Below are positions 1,004-49,165 of a DNA stretch of 64,000 bases, in pieces. Position numbers and translations under genes: made by a program. Source of the DNA: a virus (lineage: Duplodnaviria > Heunggongvirae > Uroviricota > Caudoviricetes). Under the pieces are notes generated by a model. It made no database searches, was not told the DNA's origin, and worked only from the letters and a program-made list of their open reading frames with translations. Where the stretch lies: IMG/VR virus record IMGVR_UViG_3300022468_000286; one strand, written 5' to 3'. Position 1 is the stretch's first letter. Every line of letters starts with the position of its first letter.

Positions 1004-1489
1004 ATGGTTAGTGCAGATACAGATAAACTTCTGAAAGAACTTCAAGAGTTCTATAAAGAGACAGTTCGCCGTATGGAAAATATGGTGAGAGGTTTTTCTT
1101 ATGAGATTGCTGTAACTGCAATTCAGAATACACCTTTAGGGGACTCTGTGCTGTACCGAGAACTCTATATGTCCCGTCAAGCTCCATTACCTCAAGTTGA
1201 AGGTCTTGCTAGGGGCGGTTGGCAGGTCAGTAACGATGGTACTCTTGAATTTCAATCTGCTCTTTACGGACGAGACTCTGGCAGTGCAGCAGCAAGTGCA
1301 GCAAAGATACACCTTATGAACTACAAGCTAGGTGACGTGGTATTGATTGGTAATAAAGGCCCGTACATTATGGAACTTGAAAAGAACCATAGTGAATATA
1401 CCAAAGGCCAAGGGATTATGCAACCAACCATAAGTTCAATAATGGCTGTACAACAAGCGAGTCTTCTACGGCACTACCAACAAGGATAA
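1004..1489 (+). CDS. Head-tail joining / neck protein (putative)
   Basis: 161 aa. Its start lies 2 nt after the stop of the previous gene, inside the connector block. Confidence 0.25.
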   Translation: MVSADTDKLLKELQEFYKETVRRMENMVRGFSYEIAVTAIQNTPLGDSVLYRELYMSRQAPLPQVEGLARGGWQVSNDGTLEFQSALYGRDSGSAAASAAKIHLMNYKLGDVVLIGNKGPYIMELEKNHSEYTKGQGIMQPTISSIMAVQQASLLRHYQQG

Positions 1490-1495
1490 TAGAAG

Positions 1496-1903
1496 ATGGA
1501 AATATTGAATACAAAGAAAGCGACAGAGAGGTTGCTACTAAGCATCACCCCTTCAGTTCCTACTGGATTTGAAGGTGTGGATTTTGACCCCCCTGTTGAT
1601 GCTCTATACCAGAGGTGCCAGTTCAGGATTGACCCTCCAACTGATCCAGTGTTCCCAGCAGGATACCACAGAGAGAACATGCAGATGCAAGTTTTTATCG
1701 CTGGAATCAAGGGACAAGGTACAGGGGAAGTGATTGCAAGAGCAGAACTTCTACGCCAAACATTCTACAAAGGTTTGACTCTCATTGAGGGGACAACCAG
1801 AATCCATATACTTGAAACTGCACAGATTGGCTCAGTATTTACTGCTCAAGATCGGGTGGTTTTACCTGTGCTTATCTCACTAACCGCAGAAGTATATCAG
1901 TGA
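1496..1903 (+). CDS. Tail terminator / tail completion protein (putative)
   Basis: 135 aa, the last small ORF before the major tail gene. Assignment is by position only. Confidence 0.2.
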   Translation: MEILNTKKATERLLLSITPSVPTGFEGVDFDPPVDALYQRCQFRIDPPTDPVFPAGYHRENMQMQVFIAGIKGQGTGEVIARAELLRQTFYKGLTLIEGTTRIHILETAQIGSVFTAQDRVVLPVLISLTAEVYQ

Positions 1904-1924
1904 CAGTGAACCTGATTCACTTTT

Positions 1925-1946
1925 AGCCTTCGGGCTTGTTTTATTT
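1925..1946 (+). terminator. Intrinsic terminator/attenuator (agcc-UUCG-ggct + T-run)
   Basis: Hairpin with UUCG loop followed by tgttttatttg. Confidence 0.45.
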
Positions 1947-1973
1947 GCAAATAAACAAATTAAGGAAATATAA

Positions 1974-3185
1974 ATGCCAATCGCAAAAGGTGTAAGTAAA
2001 AAAGTTGCTTACAAAAAAGAATCTACATGGGGTACACTAGCTGGCACAACTGGTTCGAAGTACCTGCGTCGTGTTACTGCTAACTTTAACCTGACAAAAG
2101 AAACATATGAGTCTGCTGAAATCCGTACAGATTACCAAGTCGCTGATATGCGTCACGGTGTACGGAGTTCGGAAGGTTCTCTGAACGGTGAACTGTCGCC
2201 TAATACTTATTCGGATTTCATGCAATCTGTGCTGGCCCGTAACTTTACAGCCGGTGGAACAGTTGCTGGTGCTTCGATTACGATTGCAGTATCTGGTCAA
2301 TTCTTCACAGTGACTCGTGCTGCAGGTAGCTGGATTACTGACGGTTTCTATGTCGGTAACGTTGTTCGTCTGACCGGCGCCGGTTTTAACGCAGCTAATA
2401 CTGGCAATAACTTGCTGGTTGTAGCTATTACTGCTCTGGCACTGACCGTTCGTGTACTATCTGCAACTCCAATGGTTGCTGAAGGTCCTATTGCTTCTGC
2501 TGGTGCTTCAGTTGTTGGTAAGCAAACATTTGCTCCACTGACTGGTCACACTGATGACTCATACACTATTGAAGAATGGTATAGCGATATCGCTCAATCA
2601 GAAGTATACACTGGTATGAAGGTCGGTACAATGTCTGTGCAGCTTCCAGCTACAGGACTTGTTACTTGTGATTTCAGCTTCATGGGTAAGAACCTTGAGC
2701 AGAAAGGCACTGCACAGTATTTCACGACTCCTACTGCTGCAGGTACTAATGGTATCTTTGCCGCTGTATCTGGCGCTCTTGTGGTGAATGATGCTCCAGT
2801 TGCTTTGATTACCTCTCTGGACTTCAGTGTAGAGCGCGGTCTTGAAGCTGCTAACGTAGTGGGTTCTAACTTTGCTGCTGACGTATTTACTGGTCGTATT
2901 CGTGCTACTGGTAACTTCAGTACTTACTTCCAAGACGGTACATTCCGTGATTACTTCGATACCGAAGCAACGATCAGCCTTGTGGTTGCTCTGTCTACCG
3001 GTTCGGAAAAGAACGCTGATGTTATCTCGTTCACATTCCCTAAAATCAAGGTTGGCTCTGCAACAAAAGCTGACTCAGAAATGGGTATTGTCCAAGAACA
3101 CAGCTTCACGGCTCTGCTGAATAGCGTAGCTGGAACTGGTCTGGTAGAATCTACCATCATGGTGCAAGACACCGCAGTAGTGTAA
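1974..3185 (+). CDS. Major tail (tube) protein
   Basis: 403 aa, Ala/Gly/Thr/Val-rich beta-type protein. It lies immediately upstream of the chaperone pair and tape measure gene (canonical V-G-GT-H order). It is preceded by an RBS and followed by a terminator. Confidence 0.5.
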   Translation: MPIAKGVSKKVAYKKESTWGTLAGTTGSKYLRRVTANFNLTKETYESAEIRTDYQVADMRHGVRSSEGSLNGELSPNTYSDFMQSVLARNFTAGGTVAGASITIAVSGQFFTVTRAAGSWITDGFYVGNVVRLTGAGFNAANTGNNLLVVAITALALTVRVLSATPMVAEGPIASAGASVVGKQTFAPLTGHTDDSYTIEEWYSDIAQSEVYTGMKVGTMSVQLPATGLVTCDFSFMGKNLEQKGTAQYFTTPTAAGTNGIFAAVSGALVVNDAPVALITSLDFSVERGLEAANVVGSNFAADVFTGRIRATGNFSTYFQDGTFRDYFDTEATISLVVALSTGSEKNADVISFTFPKIKVGSATKADSEMGIVQEHSFTALLNSVAGTGLVESTIMVQDTAVV

Positions 3186-18070: not shown

Positions 18071-18367
18071 TTAGAGCTTAAGCCAGTCTTTAATCTGCTG
18101 TACTGTCATGGTTCCAGTTCTTCGCAGCAGTTCATTTCCATTTTCATCATATAGAATCATGGTTGGAACTCCCTTGACCCCTAGTGCTTGAAGCTGAGTT
18201 CTCTCTAAGGAATCAATATCGACTTTCTCTAGGTCAATACCATAATCATCGAAGTTAATGCTTTCAAGAGATGCTTCCAGTGACTTGCACGGAGAACACC
18301 AGATGGCTCCGTATTTCTTTAAGTATTTCATAATTTCCTTACCAAGTTTGTTTCCAGAAAGGAACAC
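18071..18367 (-). CDS. Thioredoxin
   Basis: 98 aa with the CxxC active site WCSPC. Confidence 0.7.
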   Translation of the reverse strand: MFLSGNKLGKEIMKYLKKYGAIWCSPCKSLEASLESINFDDYGIDLEKVDIDSLERTQLQALGVKGVPTMILYDENGNELLRRTGTMTVQQIKDWLKL

Positions 18368-18980
18368 TAGGTTCCTTTACTGTGTTAAGCATCCAAAGAT
18401 ACAGCAATCTTATTTCATCAATTGATGCATTCCCTTTCAGCATATTAGCCCTATTAGATATAATCTGTATATTACCTTTCAAATACCCTTTAGTTGGATC
18501 AATACGATCAATTGAATAAGTCCAATCGTGGTCGCCATAGATAAACTCTCTATCAAAAACAGGACATTTTTCAGGTAGAACAATATCCTGCAATTCTAGA
18601 TCAAAATCTATCCCGTTCTTTTTAGCCCTTGATTTAGCCCTATTGTATATGCGCTTTTCGATTGATATCTCGACCCACTGCCTTTCCGACTTTTTACATT
18701 CTTTGCATCTGGAGGTGTCATATCCGGTAATGGTAGATTTATGTTTACTGAAGTGTGTTACAGATTTTTCAAAACCACAATTATTACATCTTAGTTTTGT
18801 TTTTTCACCGACAGGTTTCCTTCGTGTCATTTTACCTCGTAACGGGATATCCTCTAACTCAAGAATTTTATACAGCATATAAGTTGTCAAAGGAGGGGAG
18901 ACTAGCTCCCTGATCTTCAGAATATCCTCACCGGCTGTATAAGCTTGAATTATTTCTTTTCTTACCATGTCACTGAACAT
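18339..18980 (-). CDS. HNH homing endonuclease
   Basis: 213 aa with a Zn-finger CNNCG...CKEC and the HNH core YSIDRIDPTKGYLKGNIQIISNRAN. It is adjacent to the RNR gene. Confidence 0.65.
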   Translation of the reverse strand: MFSDMVRKEIIQAYTAGEDILKIRELVSPPLTTYMLYKILELEDIPLRGKMTRRKPVGEKTKLRCNNCGFEKSVTHFSKHKSTITGYDTSRCKECKKSERQWVEISIEKRIYNRAKSRAKKNGIDFDLELQDIVLPEKCPVFDREFIYGDHDWTYSIDRIDPTKGYLKGNIQIISNRANMLKGNASIDEIRLLYLWMLNTVKEPSVPFWKQTW

Positions 18981-20185
18981 GCACCACCAGCACAGGCTTG
19001 ACTCCCCATAGTATCTACCTCAGTGTATACTTGCTTAGAAAGCTGTGTACTGAAGTCAATATCAATATAACTATTCCTGATAGCTTCCCACTTATGTAGA
19101 TTGAAGCAATCCTTCAAGCAGAAGGTCATCTGCATAATATCTCCATTGAAGAAGTTATTAGCAAACTTAGTGGCACGGCGAATCCAATCACGCTTCAGCA
19201 AGTCCTCAGAATTTTCCGGGTCAATCTTCAGTCCGAATCCAAGTGCAGTATCACATGCCATCCAGAGGTTGTTATTGAACGCATGCAGACCCTCAACTAC
19301 AAGTCCTGATGCAAACATACTTGCCGCACCATATCTCTGTAGAATCTGCTCTGCTGTAAGAACTTCCGTAAATGGAGCTTGAGCATATGCACGATCACCC
19401 ATAGAACTCAACAGAGAAACACCAGCAAACCACTGGCGATTATCGAACAGATATTGTTCAACCTCATCCCAGTCATCTACAGTAATGGTGTTACTGATGT
19501 TGTGCCGGAGGTTTTTATCAACACCCAGATCAACATTTGTACCAGCCTCTACCCAGAATTGTTGTGCCTTCTTGACATACTCAAGTTGCTTAACACCAAG
19601 CAGTTGATCCTTGTAAACAGAACCTTCCTTGCTTGTAATAGGGAAGCTCACAACAACGTCAGTTCCATTTGAACTCCATACAGATTTCTCAACCATCTTC
19701 GGGTTCTTCTCTGCAATAATCTTTGCTACTTCGTCATGCTCATTCATCTGTACATTTCGGAAGTACAGAGGTGAATGCTCACCGTGAATACCAGAAGCCG
19801 TGCCCAGAATAACCGAAGCGTTACCAGAAGGTTTAGCACAAGTAGTACGCGCTGCTGGATTAATTCCAATCAGTGCAGCAATCTCTCGATTAACTTCCTT
19901 GACTAGGTTAGCACCTTCAATCATGTTTTCTTCATTAAAGAGAATGTCAGGGCTATTCATCCATCCAGTAATCGACACACCAATCAATGCTTCACGTTCT
20001 GTAATTCTGCGGGTTGCATCTGTTAGATACTTGAAGTTTGTATATCCAGCTTGCAGAGTACCAAGAATAGCACTAGCGCGGCACATACGCAGGAATGTAG
20101 GAACATCCACACACATCCCGCCATTGCCCTCCGTAAGATTGCAAAATTGAAATCCACTCTCACCGTCTTCTGCTGTTGGCAACAT
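18962..20185 (-). CDS. Ribonucleotide reductase large subunit, 3' exon (C-terminal half)
   Basis: It contains the catalytic-site region FCNLTEG and a C-terminal Cys tail QACAGGACSVTW. The true exon start lies downstream of the listed ATG. Confidence 0.65.
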   Translation of the reverse strand: MLPTAEDGESGFQFCNLTEGNGGMCVDVPTFLRMCRASAILGTLQAGYTNFKYLTDATRRITEREALIGVSITGWMNSPDILFNEENMIEGANLVKEVNREIAALIGINPAARTTCAKPSGNASVILGTASGIHGEHSPLYFRNVQMNEHDEVAKIIAEKNPKMVEKSVWSSNGTDVVVSFPITSKEGSVYKDQLLGVKQLEYVKKAQQFWVEAGTNVDLGVDKNLRHNISNTITVDDWDEVEQYLFDNRQWFAGVSLLSSMGDRAYAQAPFTEVLTAEQILQRYGAASMFASGLVVEGLHAFNNNLWMACDTALGFGLKIDPENSEDLLKRDWIRRATKFANNFFNGDIMQMTFCLKDCFNLHKWEAIRNSYIDIDFSTQLSKQVYTEVDTMGSQACAGGACSVTW

Positions 20186-20995
20186 GCCAATTTCAACACC
20201 TTTATTTGTTACTCTGCTTTCGCAGGGTCAAGTCATTTCTGCTTGACTCTATATATCACTATATAGAACAGACTATATCATCACCCATTTCTGGGGTTTA
20301 TCGTCCGAGCTTATAACTAAAACTTGGCAGGGTGTATTCACCAATAAGAGCATCGAATTTCTCAACATCCCTAGCACGAAGCCTGAGATACCAATAATTG
20401 TTTTGACGGTTAATATTGAATTCAAGACCAAGCTTTTCTTTAATAGCTTGTTTCAGTAATAGATTATCTCCATAACTGAATCCCTTAGTATTCAATGTAA
20501 TGTTTGGTTTAGCATCTGGGGAGCGTTGATCTTGCACCCTACTACCATCTGCCATAAAAATAATTGCTAATGCTTCTGCATCCATAAGGGTAAGCATATG
20601 CGGGTCAATTACTTTCTTACCGTCAATATAAATTCGATTTCTAATTGTTGTTAATTTTGGATGATTTTTAGAACGTAGTGTAATCTGTGGCTTTCTGTTA
20701 AAACCATCGTCAGTTAATTTACGGTCTGAAATTGAACATCCAATCCCTGCCTCTACCAGAGTATCACGTACTTTTTCAACGTAATCGCTATTCTCTTTTT
20801 TCATATTCATGGTAAATGAAGCGTTGGTAGAATTCGCAACTAAGTATAAACCACCATCAAAGGTAGAAAAATAGTATAGTCGCTTAGTTAGTTCTTTACT
20901 CATAGTCGTTGCACCTTCCATATCGGATTGGCACAGGATTATCTCACTGAGACTTCCCCTGTTTTTAGATAAATTATTCATAAGACCTTACGATC
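20186..20995 (-). mobile_element. Group I-type intron with embedded LAGLIDADG HEG interrupting the RNR gene (boundaries approximate)
   Basis: The RNR reading frame is broken by stops on both sides of a free-standing 227-aa HEG ORF with its own RBS. An in-frame intein is excluded. Confidence 0.5.
20298..20981 (-). CDS. LAGLIDADG homing endonuclease (two motifs)
   Basis: The motifs are YYFSTFDGGLYLV and AIIFMADGS, about 100 aa apart. Confidence 0.6.
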   Translation of the reverse strand: MNNLSKNRGSLSEIILCQSDMEGATTMSKELTKRLYYFSTFDGGLYLVANSTNASFTMNMKKENSDYVEKVRDTLVEAGIGCSISDRKLTDDGFNRKPQITLRSKNHPKLTTIRNRIYIDGKKVIDPHMLTLMDAEALAIIFMADGSRVQDQRSPDAKPNITLNTKGFSYGDNLLLKQAIKEKLGLEFNINRQNNYWYLRLRARDVEKFDALIGEYTLPSFSYKLGR

Positions 20996-22006
20996 TTAGG
21001 CCGCTAGTTTTAACGGATTATAGCAGAACTCTTTATTATCAGTAAAGATAAAGCCGGGCTCACCGAAATCCTTCACAGATTTCATAATGTCTCGCCATTC
21101 ATCTCGCGTCAGTTCGTCACGGATAAGCATCACAGAGTTATTGCTGCGACCACGTTGAGGGTTCTTGGCAAACCAGTTACCAGTTTTTGCCTTCAGCATA
21201 TCCTGATCATCTTTATCGAACAGACAGATGGTAGCACTGCGACGTACACCACCAGACAAAACAGCGTCAGACATATGCATAACAAAATCATATGCAACGA
21301 TTGTAGGAATCTTGACTGCTACCTTACTATTTACCACGAGGTCTTGTAAAAGCTTTTCACACTTCACAAGGGATTCACGCAGACCATCAGGGCCGGGAGC
21401 CTTGAAACCTCCAGAAATCATCGCACCTTTTGGTCGAATCAAGCTATAATCAAAGTGAACCTGCACGCCTTGATATTCTGGGAAAGTAGCACCTTCAGTC
21501 AAATAGCTTGAAATAAGTACACCATAAGCATCAGCCCAACCCTCGATAGTGTCAGGTACGGTAAATACCTTTACTCGTTTTTCACTACGTTTCTGAATAC
21601 TTGGGATTTTATTTACATGATGTTTTTGAACTGAGAATCCTACACCGCAACCGCACAGCAGTAGGTACATTGCTTCTTGAAAGAAGGCTGGACGATCACA
21701 ATGCGAAACCGAACAATTATACATTCTAGCATTATGCTTGAATAGTTGTTCACCGCCGAATTGCAAAGCACGTTGTGCACCAAGTACAAGCTTTTCCTTA
21801 TAGGCTTCTTCTGCGTAATCAATAGCTGCAGCCAGAGCAGGAGTCATTTTATCTTTATACTTTTCCCGGTGCATGTTCATCACACGCTGTACAGATTCTA
21901 CCCATGATTCATAACGCTTATCTTCTTCAACCCACCGTGAATAGCCCATATAGAACTTAGATTGAGCCATCATGTCTTTTGTATTTTGTTCAGCTTTAAT
22001 TGTCAT
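20996..22006 (-). CDS. Ribonucleotide reductase large subunit, 5' exon (N-terminal half, no ATP cone)
   Basis: 336 aa ending ...GEPGFIFTDNKEFCYNP, just before the conserved catalytic NxCxE region. A stop follows, then the HEG. Confidence 0.6.
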   Translation of the reverse strand: MTIKAEQNTKDMMAQSKFYMGYSRWVEEDKRYESWVESVQRVMNMHREKYKDKMTPALAAAIDYAEEAYKEKLVLGAQRALQFGGEQLFKHNARMYNCSVSHCDRPAFFQEAMYLLLCGCGVGFSVQKHHVNKIPSIQKRSEKRVKVFTVPDTIEGWADAYGVLISSYLTEGATFPEYQGVQVHFDYSLIRPKGAMISGGFKAPGPDGLRESLVKCEKLLQDLVVNSKVAVKIPTIVAYDFVMHMSDAVLSGGVRRSATICLFDKDDQDMLKAKTGNWFAKNPQRGRSNNSVMLIRDELTRDEWRDIMKSVKDFGEPGFIFTDNKEFCYNPLKLAA

Positions 22007-22016
22007 ATTTTCCTTA

Positions 22017-22349
22017 TTATTCTACTGCCCCGCGAAGACGATACAAGTCCGTCAAGAGCTTTGATCCTGTGGCCTTATCCTTAGCTGCTTGTGTAGCATA
22101 CCCAGAATTTAGCCACTCTTTATCTGTCCGTTCATTACCTACGTACCTGTCACAAGTAACAATCTCTTCGAAACGATTTCGATGCTGAATGTTTTCTTGC
22201 TTTTCGATATTCTGCCGTGTTTCCATACCCAGTTCATGCAGCATTTGTTTAAACTGCTCTGGATTATTATCAATCCAGTCATAAGTGATAGTTGGCCGAA
22301 CCTTGGCAATCTCCGAAATGCTTACAAAGCAAAGTGCTGCAATACGCAT
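22017..22349 (-). CDS. Hypothetical protein
   Basis: 110 aa ORF. Confidence 0.3.
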   Translation of the reverse strand: MRIAALCFVSISEIAKVRPTITYDWIDNNPEQFKQMLHELGMETRQNIEKQENIQHRNRFEEIVTCDRYVGNERTDKEWLNSGYATQAAKDKATGSKLLTDLYRLRGAVE

Positions 22350-22428: not shown

Positions 22429-23316
22429 TCAGTGCTTCGCATTATTAGGGATTAGCTGGCGGTACTGAATCCAATCTCTGAAATTACCAGACCAATAAAC
22501 ACCTTCTTTGTCACGATGTGTTACACCTTCAGGCCAGTAATATTTATCATCAAAGCACATAGCTTGGTGCTCAACAGGGGATGCATGTACAGGCTCTGAT
22601 TCAATCAATCGACTAAACACAGTTTCTGCTTTCTCCAGAGAAGTATCAGCTTTACGGAAAGAAGCCTGAGCGCAGCAACTTGCAGAGATTTTCAGGGCTT
22701 GCTTAATGGGAATTTGATTATGATTTTCATCGTAGTAAATCCGGCTGCCATCAATTTTAGACAAACCTGTCCCCACATAAGGTATATGCCATTCTCCGCG
22801 TTTGAGAGATAAAGGAATCGAAGCTTCTTCAGCGACTTTCATAGCATAAGCCAGAGCAGCAATCGTAGGGTCAGCATCCTTATGATCTCTCAGCCAATAC
22901 CAATTAGCCTTCTCTGTGGTTGTCATAACGGTACGCATGTGCTGGAAAGGCTCTGTAATGCGATTTACGACCTGCTTGTGTACCTTCATATCATCCATAA
23001 CTCTAGCGATGCTCACAGCCTGCCTAGCGGCTTCTAGCCATAGTGCTTTGACTGCTTCCTTGGCATTCTCATCTAGTTCCTTCTCAGCTTGCATTCCCGG
23101 CTGATTCATTCCCCAGTGAACGGGCATTGCTGGGTCTTTCTCAATCAAGTCCAACATAGCTTTGACTGGAATAGCTCTGGAGCTTGCCGCGTTACGTGAA
23201 AACTGTCGATGAGTCATAAACTCTCCATGAATGATTCTAGGGTAAATCAATTCATAAGTCGTAATTCTAACTCCCCGAGGGTTAATACTGTCTGCAATAA
23301 TCTTTGCTGAAATCAT
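22429..23316 (-). CDS. thyX: Flavin-dependent thymidylate synthase ThyX
   Basis: The ThyX RHRx7-8S signature is present (THRQFSRNAASSRAIP). 295 aa. Confidence 0.8.
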   Translation of the reverse strand: MISAKIIADSINPRGVRITTYELIYPRIIHGEFMTHRQFSRNAASSRAIPVKAMLDLIEKDPAMPVHWGMNQPGMQAEKELDENAKEAVKALWLEAARQAVSIARVMDDMKVHKQVVNRITEPFQHMRTVMTTTEKANWYWLRDHKDADPTIAALAYAMKVAEEASIPLSLKRGEWHIPYVGTGLSKIDGSRIYYDENHNQIPIKQALKISASCCAQASFRKADTSLEKAETVFSRLIESEPVHASPVEHQAMCFDDKYYWPEGVTHRDKEGVYWSGNFRDWIQYRQLIPNNAKH

Positions 23317-23663
23317 TCGTTCTCCTTCTGAATTTCACTTTCAAGCACAATAAAGGAATCAAAGGGTTCATTGAGATTCTTTACATGGTAGCGTTGGTAC
23401 CCAATAACTTCTACAATTTTCACTTGTTTACCTTCGAATCCAAACTCATCACCTTTCTTATATTTAGGTGCATCTATGTCAAGAGCCTCCCAGACAGTGG
23501 CAAATTTTTCGACTGCCTTAACTTGTTTGTCCTTAAACTGAAACTCATCGCCTTTGGCATGGATATTAATTACTTTATCTTTCTTGTTTTGCTTGTTTTG
23601 CATTATTTTCCCTTTCTTCTTCGATCCGAAGCTGGAGTTTAAACAAAAGACTGGAGATTGCAC
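23313..23663 (-). CDS. Hypothetical protein
   Basis: 116 aa. An internal Met (MQNKQ) may be the true start. Confidence 0.25.
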   Translation of the reverse strand: MQSPVFCLNSSFGSKKKGKIMQNKQNKKDKVINIHAKGDEFQFKDKQVKAVEKFATVWEALDIDAPKYKKGDEFGFEGKQVKIVEVIGYQRYHVKNLNEPFDSFIVLESEIQKENE

Positions 23664-24153
23664 AAGCTAGATGGTAGCAATCAGTGCCGCCTTCGCCGTT
23701 ATCAATAAAATCTCCACGCTGATCAGCCCAAAGGTGTCTCTGAGCAGCAGAGAAATATCTTGACTGAGGATTATCAACCAAACGCCAGTTCTCTTGATCA
23801 ATAGGCTCGTTGTACTTTATTGCCCCTTTGGTAAGGACCATCACAACCTCTTCTAGAGCGTCTGCGGGGACTAGGTTATACATAGGCTTACCTGCATCGT
23901 ATTTGCGGCCTTGTAGAGGCTTCTCAGCCTTATCTGTGGGCGTATTAACCTGAGTGATTTCCTCTTTCTGTTCTGACTCTACTTCGCTAAAATAACCTCT
24001 ATAGTAGTTTGTGCAGTTATCAAGTCCTTTATCACAACCTTCACGATCCCCGTTAAAGACGCAAAGATTGCAAGGTTCTTGCCCTTCCTCCGCAACCATC
24101 ATTATGTACTTCTTACCAAGAATCTCATACTGTTCCTGATCCGCTATTTTCAT
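23575..24153 (-). CDS. dNTP pyrophosphohydrolase-like protein (DUF550/MazG-fold type) with N-terminal Cys-rich domain
   Basis: The motif KYDAGKPMYNLVPADALEEVVMVLTKGAIKYNEPIDQENW matches the phage dATP/dGTP pyrophosphohydrolase family pattern. Confidence 0.45.
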   Translation of the reverse strand: MKIADQEQYEILGKKYIMMVAEEGQEPCNLCVFNGDREGCDKGLDNCTNYYRGYFSEVESEQKEEITQVNTPTDKAEKPLQGRKYDAGKPMYNLVPADALEEVVMVLTKGAIKYNEPIDQENWRLVDNPQSRYFSAAQRHLWADQRGDFIDNGEGGTDCYHLACAISSLLFKLQLRIEEERENNAKQAKQER

Positions 24154-24687
24154 TTAACCCCCTTTTGCTTGCTTTAGTATATTGATTGTCAGTAAAGTTT
24201 CCGCCTTAACTTTATCATCTGACCATGACACTAAATCGTTCAACGAAATTTTACCATGCATAAATGCCCAAAGGGTTGCATTTCCAAATTGCTTATGGAG
24301 CCATACATGATCTGCCAGTTTTAAGACTGCTAAGTTGTCTGGAGAATTATTCAGAACATCACAATCTCTGTGATGCACATGATGTCCTTTAGGTATTGAC
24401 TCTAGTTGAAGAATTTCACACGCTACTGCGATATGTAGTTTAATCTTCTTCTTTGAGAGTAATAAGCTCGTTTGCGGACTGAAAATCTGATAACCATCAC
24501 AATCAAAATTTCTATTCTTGTTGTTTGGATTCTTGGTCCCTAGATATGCATTACTTTTAAAGATCGCACTGCACGTAACAGAACAGAAGAAACCAAGGGT
24601 GCGTTTCTCTTTTCTCCGCGAGGGCTTGAGGTAGAAACTTCTACTACACTGCGCGCAGGTCGTATTATTTTCAATATGCTTTTCCAT
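24154..24687 (-). CDS. HNH homing endonuclease
   Basis: There is an N-terminal Zn-finger CAQCSRSF...CSVTC. The HNH core is HHVHHRDCDVLNNSPDNLAVLKLADHVWLH. Confidence 0.6.
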   Translation of the reverse strand: MEKHIENNTTCAQCSRSFYLKPSRRKEKRTLGFFCSVTCSAIFKSNAYLGTKNPNNKNRNFDCDGYQIFSPQTSLLLSKKKIKLHIAVACEILQLESIPKGHHVHHRDCDVLNNSPDNLAVLKLADHVWLHKQFGNATLWAFMHGKISLNDLVSWSDDKVKAETLLTINILKQAKGG

Positions 24688-25688: not shown

Positions 25689-26627
25689 TTAAGCCTTCGG
25701 TGCGGAAAGCAAATTAGAACGTTTAGTTTTAGAAGTCTGGTTAGACTTGTCACGCTGAACTGTTTCGCATTCTGTACAACGTATCTCATTATATACACCA
25801 GAAGGAGTATACACCTTGCGTCCCGTGGATTCAAACTCATGATGACCGCATGAACGGCAGCGAACAATATCATCATCGTAGTAAAGAGCAGCATTGAAGC
25901 CTGAAACAAGTCCACGACTACGAAGAGCAAGGAATACTTCTACAAGAAGATCAACGTCTTGTTCGCAGTATTCTCGCATTTCTTCCATTGCTTCTTCCTT
26001 ACCTGCCTGCACATCTACCCACAGCTTAATACCGCTGTGACTAACCTTGCGACCGATATTCAGGTACGCGCCGAGAGCGTCCAGTCTATTGCTTGGGAAT
26101 CGAAACTTGCGCTTGGCAATCTCAAGAGTATCAACAACTTGTACTGTAGGTAGTGGAGGAAGGCCATTAGCCATGCATCGCAGTTCCAGCATCTTGATAT
26201 CGAAATTCTTTGCATTGTGTGCTACTACAACATCAGCGTTGGCAAACAAATCCCAGAGCATTGCACAGACAAGGTAGTCTTGATCATTGCGGATTTCAGA
26301 TTTATTATACAGTACAGTGGACTGATTTGCACCCAGCCAACGGTATCCTGCCATAAGAATCTTTCCACCTTCTTTTTCTACAGCATCTTGATTAATGAAT
26401 TGTTTATGCCTGCCAAAGCAGTAAACCAAAGCAGCACTTGTTTCAAGATCGAAGAAGAGTACTTTTGGGCCTGTGGTGGCTGCTGTATTAATAACTGCAG
26501 AGTGTCGCTTCAGAAATTCATTAACGCCACTCTTGCTCAGTCCTAGATGCGTAGCGATACTGCGACCGGAATAGCCGTCCTTGGCTTGTGCAAGGATTTC
26601 CTCTTGTAGTTCTTGGGAATATTTCAT
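25689..26627 (-). CDS. DEDD-type 3'-5' exonuclease with N-terminal HTH and C-terminal Zn-ribbon
   Basis: The exo motifs are FFDLETS, VVAHNAKNFD and YCEQDV. The HTH is GRSIATHLGLSKSGVNEFL. The C-terminus carries CRSCGHH...RCTECE. Confidence 0.55.
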   Translation of the reverse strand: MKYSQELQEEILAQAKDGYSGRSIATHLGLSKSGVNEFLKRHSAVINTAATTGPKVLFFDLETSAALVYCFGRHKQFINQDAVEKEGGKILMAGYRWLGANQSTVLYNKSEIRNDQDYLVCAMLWDLFANADVVVAHNAKNFDIKMLELRCMANGLPPLPTVQVVDTLEIAKRKFRFPSNRLDALGAYLNIGRKVSHSGIKLWVDVQAGKEEAMEEMREYCEQDVDLLVEVFLALRSRGLVSGFNAALYYDDDIVRCRSCGHHEFESTGRKVYTPSGVYNEIRCTECETVQRDKSNQTSKTKRSNLLSAPKA

Positions 26628-27139
26628 TGATTGTCCTTTACTTTCTGTATTACATTCTTGATTATATCAAAACTGAACTTTCGTGTCAATAGTGCTTTCT
26701 GGAATAACGTCTTTCGCTCTTTGGCATTTGAACCTTCAGTTTGATTTAATTCCTGTAGCACCGCTTTCTTCTGCCCTTCAGATAGACCGTTAAACCAAGT
26801 ATTAACTTTCTTCAACCACATATCGTGTCTGAATCTAGTATCGGGAGGTTTCTCTAAGAAGTTTGCAATCTGTCTTAGAGTCTGTGAAAGAGTATAAGGA
26901 CTCCACCATCTCATATATCTGATCCAAGCTCTTTCAATAACACCTAGAAAAGAATTAGCTTGCCTACTTGCTACTCCACGGACAAACATTTCATCGTCAT
27001 GAGCATGCTCTAAGATGTGTTGTTTGTCTTGGATTTCCATGCCAGTAATGATACAGGTATTGTTCTGCTCCTTCGTCAGTAATGCTCGGATGCGGGCCTT
27101 ATCTGCTGCGTTGTACAAGTCTTCAGTTTTACTTGGCAT
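26624..27139 (-). CDS. Endonuclease VII-like (His-Me finger) junction-resolving nuclease
   Basis: The motif CIITGMEIQDKQHILEHAHDDEMFVRGVASRQANSFLG resembles the T4 gp49 core. Confidence 0.45.
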   Translation of the reverse strand: MPSKTEDLYNAADKARIRALLTKEQNNTCIITGMEIQDKQHILEHAHDDEMFVRGVASRQANSFLGVIERAWIRYMRWWSPYTLSQTLRQIANFLEKPPDTRFRHDMWLKKVNTWFNGLSEGQKKAVLQELNQTEGSNAKERKTLFQKALLTRKFSFDIIKNVIQKVKDNQ

Positions 27140-29239: not shown

Positions 29240-29315
29240 TGGCGCGTCTGGAGGGATTCGAACCCCCGACAAGTGATGTAGAAGATCACGGCTCTATCCA
29301 CTGAGCTACAGACGC
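29240..29315 (-). tRNA. tRNA-Arg (anticodon UCU)
   Basis: 76-nt cloverleaf read by hand. It has the acceptor stem GCGTCTG/CAGACGC, D-stem GCTC/GAGC, anticodon loop CU-UCU-AC, T-loop GGTTCGAATCC, discriminator G and an encoded CCA. Confidence 0.8.
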
Positions 29316-36531: not shown

Positions 36532-36618
36532 TGGTGCAACAGGTGAGATTCGAACTCACGGTGGGATTTCTCCACTGGCTTATGAGGCCAGAGCCTGCAA
36601 CCGCACGGCGTCTGTTGC
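36532..36618 (-). tRNA. Type II (long variable arm) tRNA with anticodon CAU and discriminator A
   Basis: 87 nt read by hand. It has the acceptor GCAACAG/CTGTTGC, a 3-bp D-stem, anticodon stem CTGGC/GCCAG with loop CU-CAU-AA, a ~15-nt variable arm, T-arm GTGAG-TTCGAAT-CTCAC and an encoded ACCA. Position 8 is A. Confidence 0.6.
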
Positions 36619-36659: not shown

Positions 36660-38801
36660 TTAGTGAACCTCTCTCCACGTCTTACCTACCTTGCCTTCAC
36701 CCACTAGAGGGACCTTGATCTTGAGTGCAGTTCCAGCAGTCGCAATAGACTTCTCAATCAACTTTGCAACCTCTTCTCCGATGCTTTCTTCGCATTCGTA
36801 TTCTAGCTCGTCGTGAAAGTATCCAATGCGACGAACGACACAGCCTTTGTAGAGGTAGTAAGGTCTGCGCTTCTCATCCCAGAGTATACCGCCCAGCCAA
36901 CGATCCATATAGCAGCCTGCGTAGTCCATGATGATACCACCACAACTTTGAAAGATAGTGTTCAGCAAAGCAGATTTCTTACGGGTCAGCAAAATTCTAC
37001 CATCAATTGCAGGAAGGTACTTTTTCTGTCCTTTGGAATTCCAGTAAGCTTCTAGGTTTTCCTTAAGCTCTTTAGTTCCGGGGTTAGCCTCCCAGAATGC
37101 ATCCAGAGCCTTTTTGCCGTACTTTTCTGCAATGCCAAGGGTAGAGGCTACCTTTGGTGCTGCAGCCCCGTACATAATGGCGTAGTACCCGTTCTTGCTC
37201 TTGCTGCGATATGGCTTCCACTTAGGATTATCTTTGTCGAAGTCCGGAGACTTATACAGAGCCGCCACTTCTGCATGAATATCTCCGTAGAAAGCAAAAG
37301 TATTCTTTGAGTGAACATCGCCTTTAAGAAGTTCTTCTGCAGTGGCACCATTATCGTACTTATAGCAGTAATGTCCTTGGACTCGACCTTCAAGAGCAGC
37401 AGCATCGCCAGCAGCGATTACAAATCCATCTTCAGAAGTCCACAATGAACGAAACTCATATCCGAGCAATACTTTAGGGTCAGCTTTAGGGACATTGACT
37501 ACTACTTGGTGTTTCTGTCTGTGAGTAGAAGCAATACCTGTACGGCCTGCTCCAATACGACCATCATAAGCTAGACGTTCATTCCCAAGCCATCCTTCTA
37601 ATACTGAAAGCCTGTTACGCATAGAAAGCCATTTAACCACCTGACGAACAATCTCACCTTCCATTGCTTCTAGGTTCACGCACAGCTTGCCAGCCTCTTG
37701 AATCTTAGGTGATGTAGGAGTTAGCTGCCTAGTAACAGGGTCACGAACGGGCTTACCTGAAGAGTCCTTCTTATAATTCCATAAAGTAGGCTCCCATCCA
37801 GATTCAAGAAACCAATCTTTCATCTGCTCTTGATTTCCCATTTCCATAGGAAGTTCAATATCTAGTATTTGGTTAGCCTTGATTGCATATTTCTTGCCAT
37901 AGAATTCCCACATTTCATTGACCTGCTTGCCGTTGTGTTTTTCTACGAACTTCAGCCATTGAGCAGAGTAATCCCCATTAGCCTTAAATGGCTTGGCGGG
38001 CATCTTATAGTCTTTCTCTTCTGTTTTCTTGAGCTTTCTCGGAGGAAGTTTAGGCTCTACCTCAGCACGAATATCTTCCATCATTTGTTTGATCTTAATA
38101 ACAAGGTCGTTTCCTGCCTTAACATCAAACTTCCATCCTGAAAGGTCTTGGCAACTCATAAGGAAAAAGCTTTTCTGCCCTGCACGGAAACTAGGAATCC
38201 AACCATCCCAAGAGCCATAAATATCAATCCATTCTAAGATCAGGTACTTGAAAGTCTTGTCTGCAATCAAAGTATCTTGCTCGCAGTAATCATCCATGAT
38301 TGGAGTATATTGCTGGAACTCCGCTCCGTCCCCTGCATCTTTTTCAATAATGCCTGCCTCAATACATTCTGCACGGAAATCCATCTTTGGAAATCCAAGG
38401 ACACCACCAAAATAATCAATAGAGTGCCGCATACGATCAGGATTAAGAAACATCGAGAGATAAAACGTATCCACGAAGTTAACCTCAATATCCTCGATAG
38501 TATCAGGGCCTACAGTAAAATCCAAATCAAGGATAAACTTCATTGCAAAAATATCATACCCTAAACCATTATGAAAAATAACATTAGGCTTATCGTAACC
38601 CTCCAGCCACGATAGAAACTTCTGGCGCGCTTTAGGATCATTGAAGGGCTTCAGCTTCAACTTCTCTCCAGTGTCCAAATCCTTGAGGCAAAGCACCCAA
38701 ATCTTCGTAGCTGCAAAGACGAATCCGTTAGCTTCAATGTCCAATGAAAATCCGTTGTACTTCATATTTCTCCTTCCAAATAACAAACGGCAGTCTACCA
38801 T
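36660..38801 (-). CDS. DNA polymerase, family A (with 3'-5' exonuclease domain)
   Basis: Exo I is LDIEANG. Motif B is RSKSKNGYYAIMYG and motif C is FHDELEYE. 713 aa. Confidence 0.85.
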   Translation of the reverse strand: MVDCRLLFGRRNMKYNGFSLDIEANGFVFAATKIWVLCLKDLDTGEKLKLKPFNDPKARQKFLSWLEGYDKPNVIFHNGLGYDIFAMKFILDLDFTVGPDTIEDIEVNFVDTFYLSMFLNPDRMRHSIDYFGGVLGFPKMDFRAECIEAGIIEKDAGDGAEFQQYTPIMDDYCEQDTLIADKTFKYLILEWIDIYGSWDGWIPSFRAGQKSFFLMSCQDLSGWKFDVKAGNDLVIKIKQMMEDIRAEVEPKLPPRKLKKTEEKDYKMPAKPFKANGDYSAQWLKFVEKHNGKQVNEMWEFYGKKYAIKANQILDIELPMEMGNQEQMKDWFLESGWEPTLWNYKKDSSGKPVRDPVTRQLTPTSPKIQEAGKLCVNLEAMEGEIVRQVVKWLSMRNRLSVLEGWLGNERLAYDGRIGAGRTGIASTHRQKHQVVVNVPKADPKVLLGYEFRSLWTSEDGFVIAAGDAAALEGRVQGHYCYKYDNGATAEELLKGDVHSKNTFAFYGDIHAEVAALYKSPDFDKDNPKWKPYRSKSKNGYYAIMYGAAAPKVASTLGIAEKYGKKALDAFWEANPGTKELKENLEAYWNSKGQKKYLPAIDGRILLTRKKSALLNTIFQSCGGIIMDYAGCYMDRWLGGILWDEKRRPYYLYKGCVVRRIGYFHDELEYECEESIGEEVAKLIEKSIATAGTALKIKVPLVGEGKVGKTWREVH

Positions 38802-38825: not shown

Positions 38826-39398
38826 TTAAGTTTTAAAACTCATCAGTGCATCATACGCTCTAGAATCTAGTTGAGACTTGTATTGTTCAGCAAGAAGCCT
38901 CAATTTCGCAAGTTTAGCTTTAGTGTAAATCTTAAGACAATCTTCCAGTGTGCCGATATGTAGATGGCCTGATTTTCTTTTCCCATTTACAACAGTCGAA
39001 AGCTGTGCCACATATTTACCGTTAGATTTCTTAAAATATACCCCGTGCGGAAGATTTCCGTTTGTCGTTCGGCAGTCTGAAATCAGAGTATTAATTTCGT
39101 TAGGTAGAAAACAGCAAGACATTTCTGAGTATAGCTTACCACAACCCAGTAGGTCTTTATCTAACTGCCAGTTTGGAACAAAGTTTTTCAAATACCATTT
39201 TCTGAAATTTGAATGCAGCAGCCAATCATTTCTGACATGACATCCTTCATAACTTGGCTTCTTTTCTTGATATAACTTGCTATAACATCTTCGAATCATG
39301 CTGTGCCAAACAGCATAAGAGTCTAAGCTTGAACTTAGATCATTAATGCCTTTACCAAAAATCATTAAAATTCTCCTACACCATTGTCTCGCAACCAT
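38826..39398 (-). CDS. Free-standing homing endonuclease (HNH-like N-terminus + AP2 DNA-binding domain)
   Basis: The AP2 domain is GVYFKKSNGKYVAQLSTVVNGKRKSGHLHIGTLEDCLKIY. It is inserted between the polymerase and primase-helicase genes. Confidence 0.5.
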   Translation of the reverse strand: MVARQWCRRILMIFGKGINDLSSSLDSYAVWHSMIRRCYSKLYQEKKPSYEGCHVRNDWLLHSNFRKWYLKNFVPNWQLDKDLLGCGKLYSEMSCCFLPNEINTLISDCRTTNGNLPHGVYFKKSNGKYVAQLSTVVNGKRKSGHLHIGTLEDCLKIYTKAKLAKLRLLAEQYKSQLDSRAYDALMSFKT

Positions 39399-41110
39399 GT
39401 GTCTAGGTTGAACAGTCTTGCCTTTTCATTATCATAGTACAGTGCCCCTGCTGGTCCTGTCAAGCCATATAAACGATTTTTAGTAACAAAAATCTCTGTG
39501 GTGTTTCGCTTGATCGGGTCTTCAGCCATCTTGTCACGCTTTAGCAGAATATTTGCAGAAGCAGATTTAATAATTGTACTCGAACCCATAATGTTCATTT
39601 CACTATCTGCACCTGATTTCCCAGCTTCAACCTTTCGCATATGATTAACAAATACTAGCGTACAACCGTGAGACTTAATAATACCTTTAGCCCATTTAAG
39701 GAAAAGTGCCTGCTCTTCATTTGAAAGACCGTCCAACACATCCTGCAGAACATCGAGAATAATCACCTTACACCCACAGGCTACAACCAGTTCTTCAATT
39801 GTATCTTGAATCTCTTCAACAGAGCCGTCCCGATTATCTAGTAAATAGAAACGTGGTTCCCCGTCCTCCTTTTTGAACAACTCTTCAGCTTTCTTTTTGA
39901 CATAATCACTGCTGAGGTATTTAATACGCTCTTCGGTAGAACCAATAAGTGCCAATTTCCGTTGCAGATATTGGCTCAACATTGCCTCTCCGTATTGTCC
40001 TGCATCAAGTTCCATAGATACAATCCCCAACATATGTGGGGAATTAAAAACCCAGTATTCCAACATAAAGTTTACAAGAGTTGTCTTACCAAGCCCGGTA
40101 TCAGCAGCTACGTTGATGATTGCACCCACAGGAAGCCCGCCGACAAACTTATTATTCAATTCTTCCATTTCAGGTGGGAATGGGATTTTAGGAACCTCGG
40201 CCTGTTCAAGAATGCGAGCATAAAGATCGCTAGAAGGCAGAACCCCAACAGGTACTCTCTTTTCAGCGTTGAAGAAGTCCGAAATAAATTCCTTACTCTT
40301 GCCAGCCTTCAGGTACTCATTAGCGTCTTTAAAGCGCATCTTCATGATCTTGACCTTACCCTTTGGCAAGGACGGAATCAAGGCTTCAATGGCTTCCTGA
40401 CCGGCTTTATCAGCATCATAGCAAAGGATGATATTGTCAAAGCTATCTAGGAACTTGTACTGAGCTTTGATCTGCTTCTTACTCTGAGCGCCAGTAGTGG
40501 GACTGACTACTGCAGTTTCAAAATCCCAGCCCTTAAAAGTGTTATACTCCTTGAGCATCTGGTAGGCAGATAGTTGATCAACTTCCCCTTCAGTAATCAC
40601 TACATATTTACCGCCTCGATTAAATCGAAACTGTCCGAACAGTTCACAATCAGCACCTGTCCTGCCAATGGATCGGAAATTCTTAGGAACTTCTCGGATT
40701 TTATAGCCTACCAGTTGACCTTCTTGAGTGCATGGGTAATACTGTTCTAGGACTTCACCTGTCTCTTCATCAAACGAATGCCGCACACCAAAGTAAGCAA
40801 GCGTCGCATCAGTAAGGCTCCGGAAATTATTAGCTTTGGTGCTTGTCTCGGATTTAATCTCTGCGGCTTCCTCAGTAGTCAAGGCTGGCTTAGTACTCTT
40901 TTGAACTTCTACTTCTGTATCTTGTTTCATTGCTTCCCTTCGTTTCTTTCTTTGAGAACCTGACTTACTTTCTGCAAGTATCTCTTTGTATTCATCACTC
41001 AAGGTAGCAGCTTGGCAAACAAAACAGTATGTACTGCCGTCACTATAAACTGCCTTCCCATCACTGCTGCCGCATTTGCTACATTCTTCGTGCTTAATAA
41101 ATCCAGCCAA
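39365..41110 (-). CDS. Bifunctional primase-helicase (T7 gp4-like: Zn-ribbon + TOPRIM + DnaB-family helicase)
   Basis: The Zn-ribbon is CSKCGSS...CFVCQA, the TOPRIM is YDADKAG, the Walker A is AADTGLGKTT and the Walker B is VIILDVLQD. Confidence 0.85.
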   Translation of the reverse strand: MAGFIKHEECSKCGSSDGKAVYSDGSTYCFVCQAATLSDEYKEILAESKSGSQRKKRREAMKQDTEVEVQKSTKPALTTEEAAEIKSETSTKANNFRSLTDATLAYFGVRHSFDEETGEVLEQYYPCTQEGQLVGYKIREVPKNFRSIGRTGADCELFGQFRFNRGGKYVVITEGEVDQLSAYQMLKEYNTFKGWDFETAVVSPTTGAQSKKQIKAQYKFLDSFDNIILCYDADKAGQEAIEALIPSLPKGKVKIMKMRFKDANEYLKAGKSKEFISDFFNAEKRVPVGVLPSSDLYARILEQAEVPKIPFPPEMEELNNKFVGGLPVGAIINVAADTGLGKTTLVNFMLEYWVFNSPHMLGIVSMELDAGQYGEAMLSQYLQRKLALIGSTEERIKYLSSDYVKKKAEELFKKEDGEPRFYLLDNRDGSVEEIQDTIEELVVACGCKVIILDVLQDVLDGLSNEEQALFLKWAKGIIKSHGCTLVFVNHMRKVEAGKSGADSEMNIMGSSTIIKSASANILLKRDKMAEDPIKRNTTEIFVTKNRLYGLTGPAGALYYDNEKARLFNLDTWLRDNGVGEF

Positions 41111-49155: not shown

Positions 49156-49165
49156 AGTAAGCTCC

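Follow-up and report, generated by a model that had tools for sequence, protein, structure and literature searches.

Do two fragments of a ribonucleotide reductase (RNR) with a stray open reading frame (ORF) between them amount to a broken gene, or to one functional gene interrupted by a removable element? The question is raised by a 64,000-nt stretch of the virus record IMGVR_UViG_3300022468_000286 (hereafter the window, to which all coordinates refer unless another locus is named), in which the ORF list gives three ORFs in a row on the minus strand across 18962..22006. The first, of 336 aa (20996..22006), has the C-terminus ...FIFTDNKEFCYNPLKLAA (also written ...GEPGFIFTDNKEFCYNPLKLAA) followed by a stop; the second, of 227 aa (20298..20981), carries the motifs LYYFSTFDGG and LAIIFMADGS; and the third, of 407 aa (18962..20185), begins with MLPTAEDGESGFQFCNLTEG, contains FQFCNLTEG and ends in QACAGGACSVTW. 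An earlier reading of the DNA, made without database searches (the sequence-only reading), had taken these for an RNR large-subunit gene that is split at its catalytic site by a group I-type intron carrying a double-motif LAGLIDADG homing endonuclease gene (HEG). We consider it highly probable (about 0.88) that the locus is a mobile group I intron in a phage class II RNR gene (nrdJ), spliced to give a 743-aa reductase, and that the HEG mediates homing of the intron. All features of the locus lie on the minus strand.

An 813-nt insert interrupts the Cys332 codon of nrdJ

We found that in-silico removal of 21012..20200 restores a TGT codon in frame (...FCYNP-C-VEIGMLPTAEDGESGFQFCNLTEG...) and joins the two RNR fragments into a product of 743 aa. 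The insert (20200..21012, 813 nt) starts with UAAAACUAGCGG, ends in ...AACAAAUAAAG with the omega-G at 20200, and has a GC content of 36.5%, against 43.0% in the exons. Exon 1 (21013..22006) runs from Met1 into the Cys332 codon, of which it contains only the first base (...AAT CCG T/, where a slash marks a splice or insertion site), and exon 2 (18962..20199) runs from /GT GTT GAA ATT to the stop, so written ...TAT AAT CCG T/TAAAACTAGCGGCC...[813 nt]...AACAAATAAAG/GT GTT GAA ATT GGC ATG... across the whole junction. The ligated-exon RNA is predicted to read ...AATCCGT-GTGTTGAA... (in its wider form ...TGCTATAATCCGT-GTGTTGAAATTGGC...) and to encode the junction-spanning peptide FCYNPCVEIGMLPTAEDGESGFQFCNLTEGNGGMCVDVPTFLR. 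The insertion thus splits the Cys332 codon between its first and second bases, within the NPCVEI radical loop, which bears out the proposed split at the catalytic site. Cys332 is, by homology to adenosylcobalamin-dependent ribonucleoside-triphosphate reductase (RTPR), what we take to be the thiyl-radical cysteine of the N-P-C-x-E loop; exon 2 contributes E334, C351 of the CNL motif and the C734-x4-C739 redox pair, and the roles of the residues in loop, CNL and tail are likewise presumed from what is known of RTPR. The sequence-only reading had placed the intron at 20186..20995, a span that these boundaries correct. Its 5' exon end, ...FCYNP, was accurate, and the 3' exon that it let resume near FCNLTEG is indeed there but begins 19 residues earlier; its first base is G20199, and the ATG with which the 407-aa ORF opens follows 14 nt downstream.

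The exact junction is fixed by comparison with uninterrupted genes. Over 100 homologues without an interruption (724-741 aa; 72-91% identity in those aligned) align with the spliced protein with no gap at the junction, and F...NPCVEIGM is invariant in them. At the DNA level, an intron-less 85.5-kb contig (L001) is 81% identical on both flanks, and the alignment breaks exactly at the site, which reads ...TTCTGCTACAATCCTTGCGTTGAAATTGGTATGC... in that contig. Together with the covariation described below, the gap-free alignment of the spliced product is a pattern far beyond chance. Read on in the frame of exon 1, the insert has a stop after 5 codons and 18 stops over its whole length, and the HEG lies in another frame; these stops and the off-frame HEG exclude an intein, in agreement with the sequence-only reading.

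One could suppose instead that nrdJ is permanently split and that two polypeptides assemble without any RNA splicing, in the manner of the NrdA of Aeromonas phage Aeh1, which is split by mobE. Both flanking ORFs are intact, an ATG (20185) stands near the junction at the start of the downstream one, and split, unspliced phage RNRs are documented (PMC3045599; PMC3653736). However, the break falls inside the Cys332 codon, with the ORFs ending ...YNPLKLAA and starting MLPTAEDG, so that without splicing Cys332 and Glu334 are absent from both products. Moreover, no evident Shine-Dalgarno-like sequence is found in the 20 nt before ATG 20185, and a complete ribozyme kept by compensatory changes (see below) would make no sense without splicing. 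We consider a permanent split extremely improbable.

The interrupted gene encodes a class II reductase

The spliced gene is predicted to encode a monomeric, RTPR-like class II RNR. We found that the spliced protein matches the NCBIfam model for RTPR (TIGR02505) with 168.3 bits (E 2.2e-49); as this lies below the equivalog cut-off of 340 bits, the enzyme is only distantly related to the curated RTPR equivalog and may act on nucleoside triphosphates or on diphosphates. It also matches the Pfam class II insertion domain RNR-II_ins_dom (PF21995) with 29.1 bits, above the cut-off of 27, and the RNR barrel model PF02867 weakly, and its closest solved structure is the RTPR of Lactobacillus leichmannii (PDB 1L1L, E 2e-20). 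The traits of class II are thus present: the N-P-C-x-E loop, the insertion domain, the C-terminal cysteine pair and the lack of an ATP cone, for which the Pfam search of the protein gave no match. NPCVEI, CNL and C734-x4-C739 are kept in an alignment of RNR homologues. The sequence-only reading had already remarked on the missing ATP cone and the Cys-containing tail, and had asked for a profile classification as class I or class II. With the answer being class II, its term "large subunit" is a misnomer, and no NrdB is needed; the missing nrdB that it reported is therefore expected, and we likewise found no NrdB-like sequence in the window with tblastn, a weak test that used a single phage NrdB as query.

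Among cultured phages, Pseudaeromonas phage KLEP7 has the nearest RNR (59% identity). Megablast found no close relative of the region among 50,697 phage records, and its sole match was one of 38 nt between the 3' half of the ribozyme and an intron in nrdE of Lactococcus phage P1048.

The insert has the architecture of a group I intron

We searched the window with Rfam, which includes the group I intron model RF00028. At the gathering thresholds (50 bits for RF00028) the search returned only 2 tRNAs and no intron in the window. In E-value mode RF00028 matched 20835..21023 with 41.5 bits (E 7.7e-9), covering P1-P7, and 20249..20500 with 25.3 bits (E 5.5e-4), covering P7'-P9. The search that the sequence-only reading had proposed for 20186..20995 gives matches in E-value mode and none at 50 bits. 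The scores are sub-threshold because an ORF of ~600 nt splits the core, and with it the model, and the cut-off is an operational value rather than a property of the structure; it is exceeded by other introns in related loci (96.4 bits in locus L019 and 60 bits in locus L013).

We examined the structure in 11 distinct homologous introns from metagenomic phage contigs, with the ORF deleted, using an explicit P1-P9.2 model with the P3/P7 pseudoknot. Over the 11 helices and 59 pairs of this model, 98.9% of the 640 cells form standard pairs, and compensatory double changes occur in 36 of the 59 pairs. None of 500 shuffles reached the observed values on any of five measures, and in a control in which the partners were slid by 1-3 columns pairing came to only 36-48%. 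By helix, compensatory changes are seen in P2 (6/6 pairs), P3 (5/6), P4 (2), P5 (2), P6 (3), P9 (6/7) and P9.1 (6/6), and the GNRA loops of P2 and P9 are retained while each pair of their stems varies. RNAalifold, run blind on the same alignment, regained every helix except the pseudoknotted P3. A CCU/AGG pairing across the 3' splice site from RNAalifold was considered as P10 and discarded, having no covariation.

When we verified the helix coordinates base by base, all helices proved intact in the window copy. In P1 (21001..21016), the exon-intron sequence CCGU/UA (21016..21011) pairs with the guide UAGCGG (21006..21001), which places a U21013-G21004 wobble at the 5' splice site. A U-G pair is found at this position in 11 of 11 introns, and in locus L014, where the exon base beside the splice-site U is altered (CCG to CCU), the guide follows (GCGG to GAGG), turning a G-C into a U-A pair. 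The 5' half of the core (20902..20997) comprises P2 with its GNRA loop, J2/3, the 5' strand of P3 (UUUAUC, 20973..20968), P4, P5, P6/P6a, J6/7 and the 5' strand of P7 (GACUAU, 20907..20902). The 3' half of the ribozyme (20200..20302) comprises P3' (GAUAAA, 20302..20297), P8, J8/7, P7' (AUAGUC, 20276..20271), P9 with its GNRA loop, P9.1, P9.2 and the omega-G (G20200), which is the last base before exon 2 and does not vary in the alignment (G226). The placement of P3' rests on its relatives: the hexamer with which the ORF ends co-varies with the P3 5' strand (CCAAUC with GAUUGG, CAAUAC with GUAUUG, UCUAUC with GAUAGA and UCAAUC with GAUUGA), which makes GAUAAA at 20302..20297 the real P3'. An alternative P3', GUAAA right after P7, which would put the ORF between P3' and P8, was ruled out by the covariation in loci L019, L020, L021 and L022.

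We also built a covariance model from the 11 introns (R1). It matches the window intron with 132 and 109 bits, and finds an ORF-less 230-nt insert of KLEP7, a phage outside the training set, end to end with 127 bits (E ~4e-36). R1 has no match in the intron-less L001, and together R1 and RF00028 reveal no second intron copy in the window. Each of the eleven helices can be traced in KLEP7, in which the interval between P7 and P3', filled by the ORF in the window, is 1-2 nt. Group I introns of subgroup IA, the phage type, are marked by extra P7.1/P7.2 elements between P7 and P3' and by subgroup-specific core sequences. Many phage introns match parts of the core, with 80-95% identity across 22-42% of the intron length. 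Together, these observations demonstrate a conserved ribozyme architecture and uphold the assignment to group I, even though RF00028 itself stays below its threshold: the P3-P7 core, whose absence would have spoken against an intron, is supported by covariation, and its P7 by conservation.

A number of observations weigh against this interpretation. The RF00028 score of 41.5 bits is below the curated 50 bits, and the same model has no match on the KLEP7 intron even at E<=1. The 11 introns are kin, so the shuffle statistics overstate their independence. P7 is invariant in the set and backed by conservation alone, with no covariation; P8 has just 3 bp in the window copy; and by inspection we found no convincing P10 pairing of exon 2 with the guide sequence. 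The subgroup is only tentatively taken as IA-like. Lastly, self-splicing, DNA cleavage and homing are predictions, if highly confident ones, based on the anatomy of the element, its covariation and its distribution. The low Rfam score, the short P8 and the missing P10 could also be taken to mean that the intron has decayed into a relic unable to splice, and that this copy of nrdJ is a pseudogene. We regard this as very improbable. In addition to the intact helices of the window copy, the exons show a ratio of non-synonymous to synonymous substitution rates (dN/dS) of 0.04-0.11 against their relatives, with dS saturated, which indicates strong purifying selection in the intron-bearing genes. 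Furthermore, an identical HEG protein is found on 12 contigs, 8 of the 10 looked up being 50-200 kb long, and no other RNR gene is seen in the window.

The intron carries a LAGLIDADG endonuclease gene woven into the ribozyme core

The ORF inside the intron matches the Pfam family LAGLIDADG_2 (PF03161) with 75.4 bits (cut-off 25; E 6.5e-21) and belongs to PHROG 11023, "homing endonuclease with LAGLIDADG motif" (2e-13); among PDB sequences it matches I-WcaI (6x1j, 4.5e-6) and also I-SceI. Of its two motifs, LYYFSTFD42G43 and LAIIFMAD145G146, the residues D42, G43, D145 and G146 are, together with M27, the same in all 25 homologues compared, whose identity goes down to 50%. The AlphaFold2 model (predicted local distance difference test score 87.9, predicted template-modelling score 0.81, residues 1-25 disordered) predicts a pseudo-dimeric fold of two alpha-beta-beta-alpha-beta-beta-alpha halves, for which Foldseek returns I-WcaI (6x1j; E 1.9e-14, TM-score 0.74), I-SceI (1r7m; 2.4e-12, TM-score 0.73) and then I-DmoI. 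These results agree with the double-motif LAGLIDADG gene that the sequence-only reading had proposed, and support a predicted enzyme of the I-SceI/I-WcaI type.

The 227-aa ORF that had been described is present as the longest frame, starting from ATG 20981. This ATG is not conserved, most relatives having TTTTGAA there, and the conserved start is Met27 (ATG 20903..20901), which gives a protein of 201 aa (20298..20903). The gene lies between the 5' strand of P7 and P3' and shares nucleotides with the ribozyme at both ends: the A and U of its start codon are the last two pairs of P7, a Shine-Dalgarno-like GGAAGGUG 8 nt upstream of this ATG is at the same time the 3' strand of P6/P6a plus J6/7, and its UAA stop lies inside the P3' GAUAAA. 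Since the translation signals are in P6a/P7 and the stop is in P3', any one RNA molecule can probably either be translated into the endonuclease or fold its catalytic core, but not both.

The intron is spread among ribonucleotide reductase genes

To the HEG protein family belong 382 members of a metagenome protein collection, and in all HEG-bearing contigs that we inspected the ORF stands between two exons of a class II RNR, which demonstrates the spread of the element among RNR genes. We mapped the splice sites in 13 loci and found that 12 of them lie after the first base of the same cysteine codon. These same-codon loci include RNRs only 22-35% identical to that of the window, with HEGs 53-88% identical, while the nearest RNR relatives (87-91% identity) have no intron. 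The DNA flanking all occupied sites has approximately AAYCCKT/GY...GAR in common. Occupation of one site in RNRs of 22-35% identity requires recent mobility, and the distribution is what one would expect if an active homing element targeted the DNA of the radical-cysteine loop.

In locus L021 (2470..3296 of the locus, from IMGVR_UViG_3300028601_000033), the class II RNR is very divergent, and intron and HEG lie 26 codons upstream of its NPCGE (GAA CCG T/AT GGC). This site appears to be ectopic, with nothing in common but the CCGT that P1 requires. Two loci carry further introns. In L013 (~1297..2227, from IMGVR_UViG_3300015214_000054), a second group I intron in nrdJ, the one with 60 bits to RF00028, is inserted at ...LSGG/VRRS (residues 253/254), and its HEG differs, being of 233 aa, matching Pfam LAGLIDADG_3 (5.9e-13) and sited 5' of the ribozyme core. 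In L019 (3297..~4090, from IMGVR_UViG_3300008110_000055), a second group I intron, the one with 96.4 bits, follows ~40 nt past the first, just after CNL. The LAGLIDADG ORF of the first L019 intron runs on through P8, P7' and P9 to a length of 240 aa.

The distribution also bears on the role of the protein. An intron that splices could encode a LAGLIDADG protein that is inactive or acts only as a maturase, and is no longer a homing nuclease. LAGLIDADG maturases do exist: the bI3 maturase and I-AniI are among the structural matches, and there is a Thermotoga example (PMC3984707); moreover, ORF and ribozyme core are interwoven. These points are outweighed by the invariance of both catalytic Asp-Gly motifs among the 25 homologues, by the recent mobility that the shared site in such divergent hosts needs, and by the intron of KLEP7, which retains the full core without any protein. 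We think it improbable that the protein has lost its nuclease role.

Proposed mechanism

We propose that one pre-mRNA would be transcribed from the whole region and that the intron RNA would fold into P1-P9.2, with the exon CCGU paired to the guide UAGCGG and the P3/P7 pseudoknot as core. Exogenous guanosine would attack after U21013, and the freed exon 1 would in turn attack after the omega-G20200, which would restore T/GT. A single 743-aa reductase would result, whose CAGGAC tail pair would probably be re-reduced by a thioredoxin encoded nearby. From RNAs on which it is translated, the 201-aa I-SceI-like HEG protein would most likely cut the intron-less nrdJ of co-infecting phages at the N-P-C-x-E DNA (AAYCCKT/GY...GAR), and repair of the break would copy the intron in (homing).

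As a reading that is rather improbable, and far less so supported than the mechanism itself, we speculate that the element belongs to a widespread RNR-specific mobile intron lineage. Its HEG would read the DNA of the thiyl-radical loop (N-x-C-x-E) and hop between class II nrdJ genes at ~25% identity and into class I alpha genes, and the ribosome-binding site, ATG and stop in the core would form a hard-wired switch between homing and host function. The protein might also serve as a maturase, or as a weapon against intron-less co-infecting phages. In the open-access literature we found no published description of an RNR-specific mobile intron lineage or of a group I intron in a phage nrdJ.

Neighbouring genes

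Taken whole, the window is a replication and nucleotide-metabolism region of a lytic tailed phage: it encodes a DNA polymerase, a primase-helicase, rIIA/rIIB, an RNA ligase, a DNA ligase, a ThyX-like protein, a nicotinamide phosphoribosyltransferase and several HNH genes. Directly downstream of nrdJ, and outside the intron, a gene of 213 aa (18339..18980, minus strand) overlaps the RNR stop by 19 nt. Its product matches PHROG 3322 ("endonuclease", 2.5e-31), PHROG 1035 ("endonuclease VII") and PHROG 3118 ("HNH endonuclease"). It has no match to Pfam HNH, and only the PHROG names support a nuclease. The HNH gene said to abut exon 2 is thus borne out as an overlapping endonuclease-like gene, for which the label "HNH" is plausible by its PHROG match and lacks Pfam backing. 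The gene is present in L001 and absent in loci L008 and L010, and is best read as a candidate free-standing homing-endonuclease-like gene. A homologue (155 aa, 35% identity, E 2e-25) is the ORF of the second intron in L019.

Past this gene, and two genes downstream of nrdJ, lies a thioredoxin gene (18071..18367, minus strand; Pfam Thioredoxin 8.7e-11). A thioredoxin gene is also found close behind nrdJ in L001, L008 and L010, and its product is likely to be the reductant of the C734-x4-C739 tail.

On the upstream side, all on the minus strand, a 295-aa product (22429..23316) has a ThyX-like RHR/SxR motif and matches PHROG 85 ("thymidylate synthase", 4.7e-92), with no Pfam match at E<=0.01; at the matching position L001 has a 218-aa gene with a clear Pfam Thy1 match. 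Beside it, a 110-aa ORF (22017..22349) matches another PHROG named thymidylate synthase. Adjoining these thymidylate-synthase-like genes is one for a MazZ-like dATP/dGTP pyrophosphohydrolase (23575..24153; PHROG 801, 5.2e-25, with dGTP_diPhyd_N in relatives), which may hint at modified-nucleotide metabolism. The genome is rich in selfish nucleases: two HNH endonucleases and one endonuclease VII are predicted at 24154..24687, 26624..27139 and 38826..39398 (minus strand), and one of the HNH genes separates the DNA polymerase gene (36660..38801) from that of the primase-helicase (39365..41110). The gene for the polymerase exonuclease subunit (25689..26627) lies 10 kb from the polymerase gene. There are two tRNA genes (29243..29315, 65.4 bits; 36535..36618, 46.1 bits; both on the minus strand); a long variable arm is seen in the second, the gene directly downstream of that for DNA polymerase. 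An NAD+ salvage pair (47731..50194, minus strand) consists of the nicotinamide phosphoribosyltransferase (1e-134) and a NadR-like adenylyltransferase/Nudix protein.

Comparison with known systems

The analysis turns two RNR fragments and a stray ORF into one functional class II reductase gene, and the same correction of the annotation applies to at least three cultured phages, KLEP7, SPA01 and HHBS10_2. Group I introns with homing endonucleases are well known in phage RNR genes, namely in nrdB and nrdD of T4 and in nrdE/nrdF of Twort and SPbeta (PMC3653736; PMC3984707). Like the introns of T4 td, nrdB and nrdD (sunY), of Twort and SPbeta and of Bacillus nrdE/nrdF, the window intron has a HEG ORF looped out of the ribozyme and an in-frame stop soon past the 5' splice site (PMC3653736; PMC3984707). 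Unlike in those introns, the host gene is a class II, RTPR-type nrdJ, the HEG is of the LAGLIDADG and not the GIY-YIG or HNH type, and the ORF lies between P7 and P3' and not in the loop of P6, P8 or P9. It is in these P6, P8 or P9 loops that the ORFs of the T4 introns are placed, and the endonucleases paired with the T4 introns are I-TevI, I-TevII and I-TevIII.

A survey of 2013 lists two split phage nrdJ genes, neither of them described with a group I intron (PMC3653736), and reviews give the HEGs of phage introns as mostly GIY-YIG, HNH, PD-(D/E)xK or EDxHD (PMC3984707; PMC3943268). A LAGLIDADG HEG of the same PHROG 11023/LAGLIDADG_2 family is reported from a group I intron that interrupts the gene for DNA polymerase in Nitunavirus (Bastillevirinae), which differs in host gene and phage group and is a single case in a 2025 survey (PMC11878797). 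With good support, the present locus adds another phage group I intron that encodes a LAGLIDADG enzyme.

The closest likenesses come from three cultured phages. KLEP7 (vB_PpeM_KLEP7, OM654377; 1146..1375 of locus L011) has a same-family intron of 230 nt with helices P1-P9.2 at exactly the same codon; it differs in having no endonuclease ORF, its J7/3 being 1-2 nt against ~600 nt in the window, and its record gives the ribonucleoside-triphosphate reductase as two coding sequences with the intron unannotated. The nrdB intron of Pseudomonas phage HHBS10_2 (L005, 2645..4428) and the class I alpha intron of Pseudomonas phage SPA01 (OP875100; L004, 2098..4708) are of the same lineage, scoring 83.5+61.4 and 70.3+56.8 bits with R1. 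The SPA01 intron interrupts the homologous thiyl-Cys loop (SNLC/QE) and its exons figure as two "hypothetical proteins"; in HHBS10_2 the HEG is annotated as "homing endonuclease with LAGLIDADG motif". Both HEGs are 37-38% identical to that of the window and have the same ORF placement, whereas the host genes are of other RNR classes or subunits, and the introns are unannotated in both records.

Among proteins, the RTPR of L. leichmannii (1L1L) shares with the predicted enzyme its monomeric class II architecture, the insertion domain, NPC-x-E, the CNL cysteine and the C-terminal C-x4-C, but is distant in sequence (168 bits against the 340-bit equivalog cut-off), and the B12 dependence of the window enzyme is predicted. 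I-SceI and I-WcaI, monomeric double-motif enzymes from introns in fungal mitochondrial rRNA genes, share the Pfam family, the fold and an Asp-Gly motif per half with the predicted HEG protein, which differs from them in sequence (16-20% identity), in its phage host and in its protein-coding target. The predicted target of this HEG family is a defined and highly conserved coding sequence, and the family could yield new meganuclease scaffolds. The class II host gene, the LAGLIDADG enzyme in a phage and the ORF threaded between P7 and P3' are uncommon details; no feature of the element falls outside the known repertoire, and the understanding of how such elements work is left unchanged.

The position directly N-terminal to the radical cysteine is reported to be the commonest intein site in RNRs (PMC2677866). 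The RIR1 inteins of class I and class II RNRs occupy the same hot spot, the window intron being inserted one base further on, and they are removed at the protein level, whereas the window insert, with its 18 stops and off-frame HEG, would be removed at the RNA level. Inteins at the thiyl-radical cysteine often carry LAGLIDADG endonucleases as well. Introns are thus found at the spot that inteins favour in these enzymes, the thiyl-radical cysteine.

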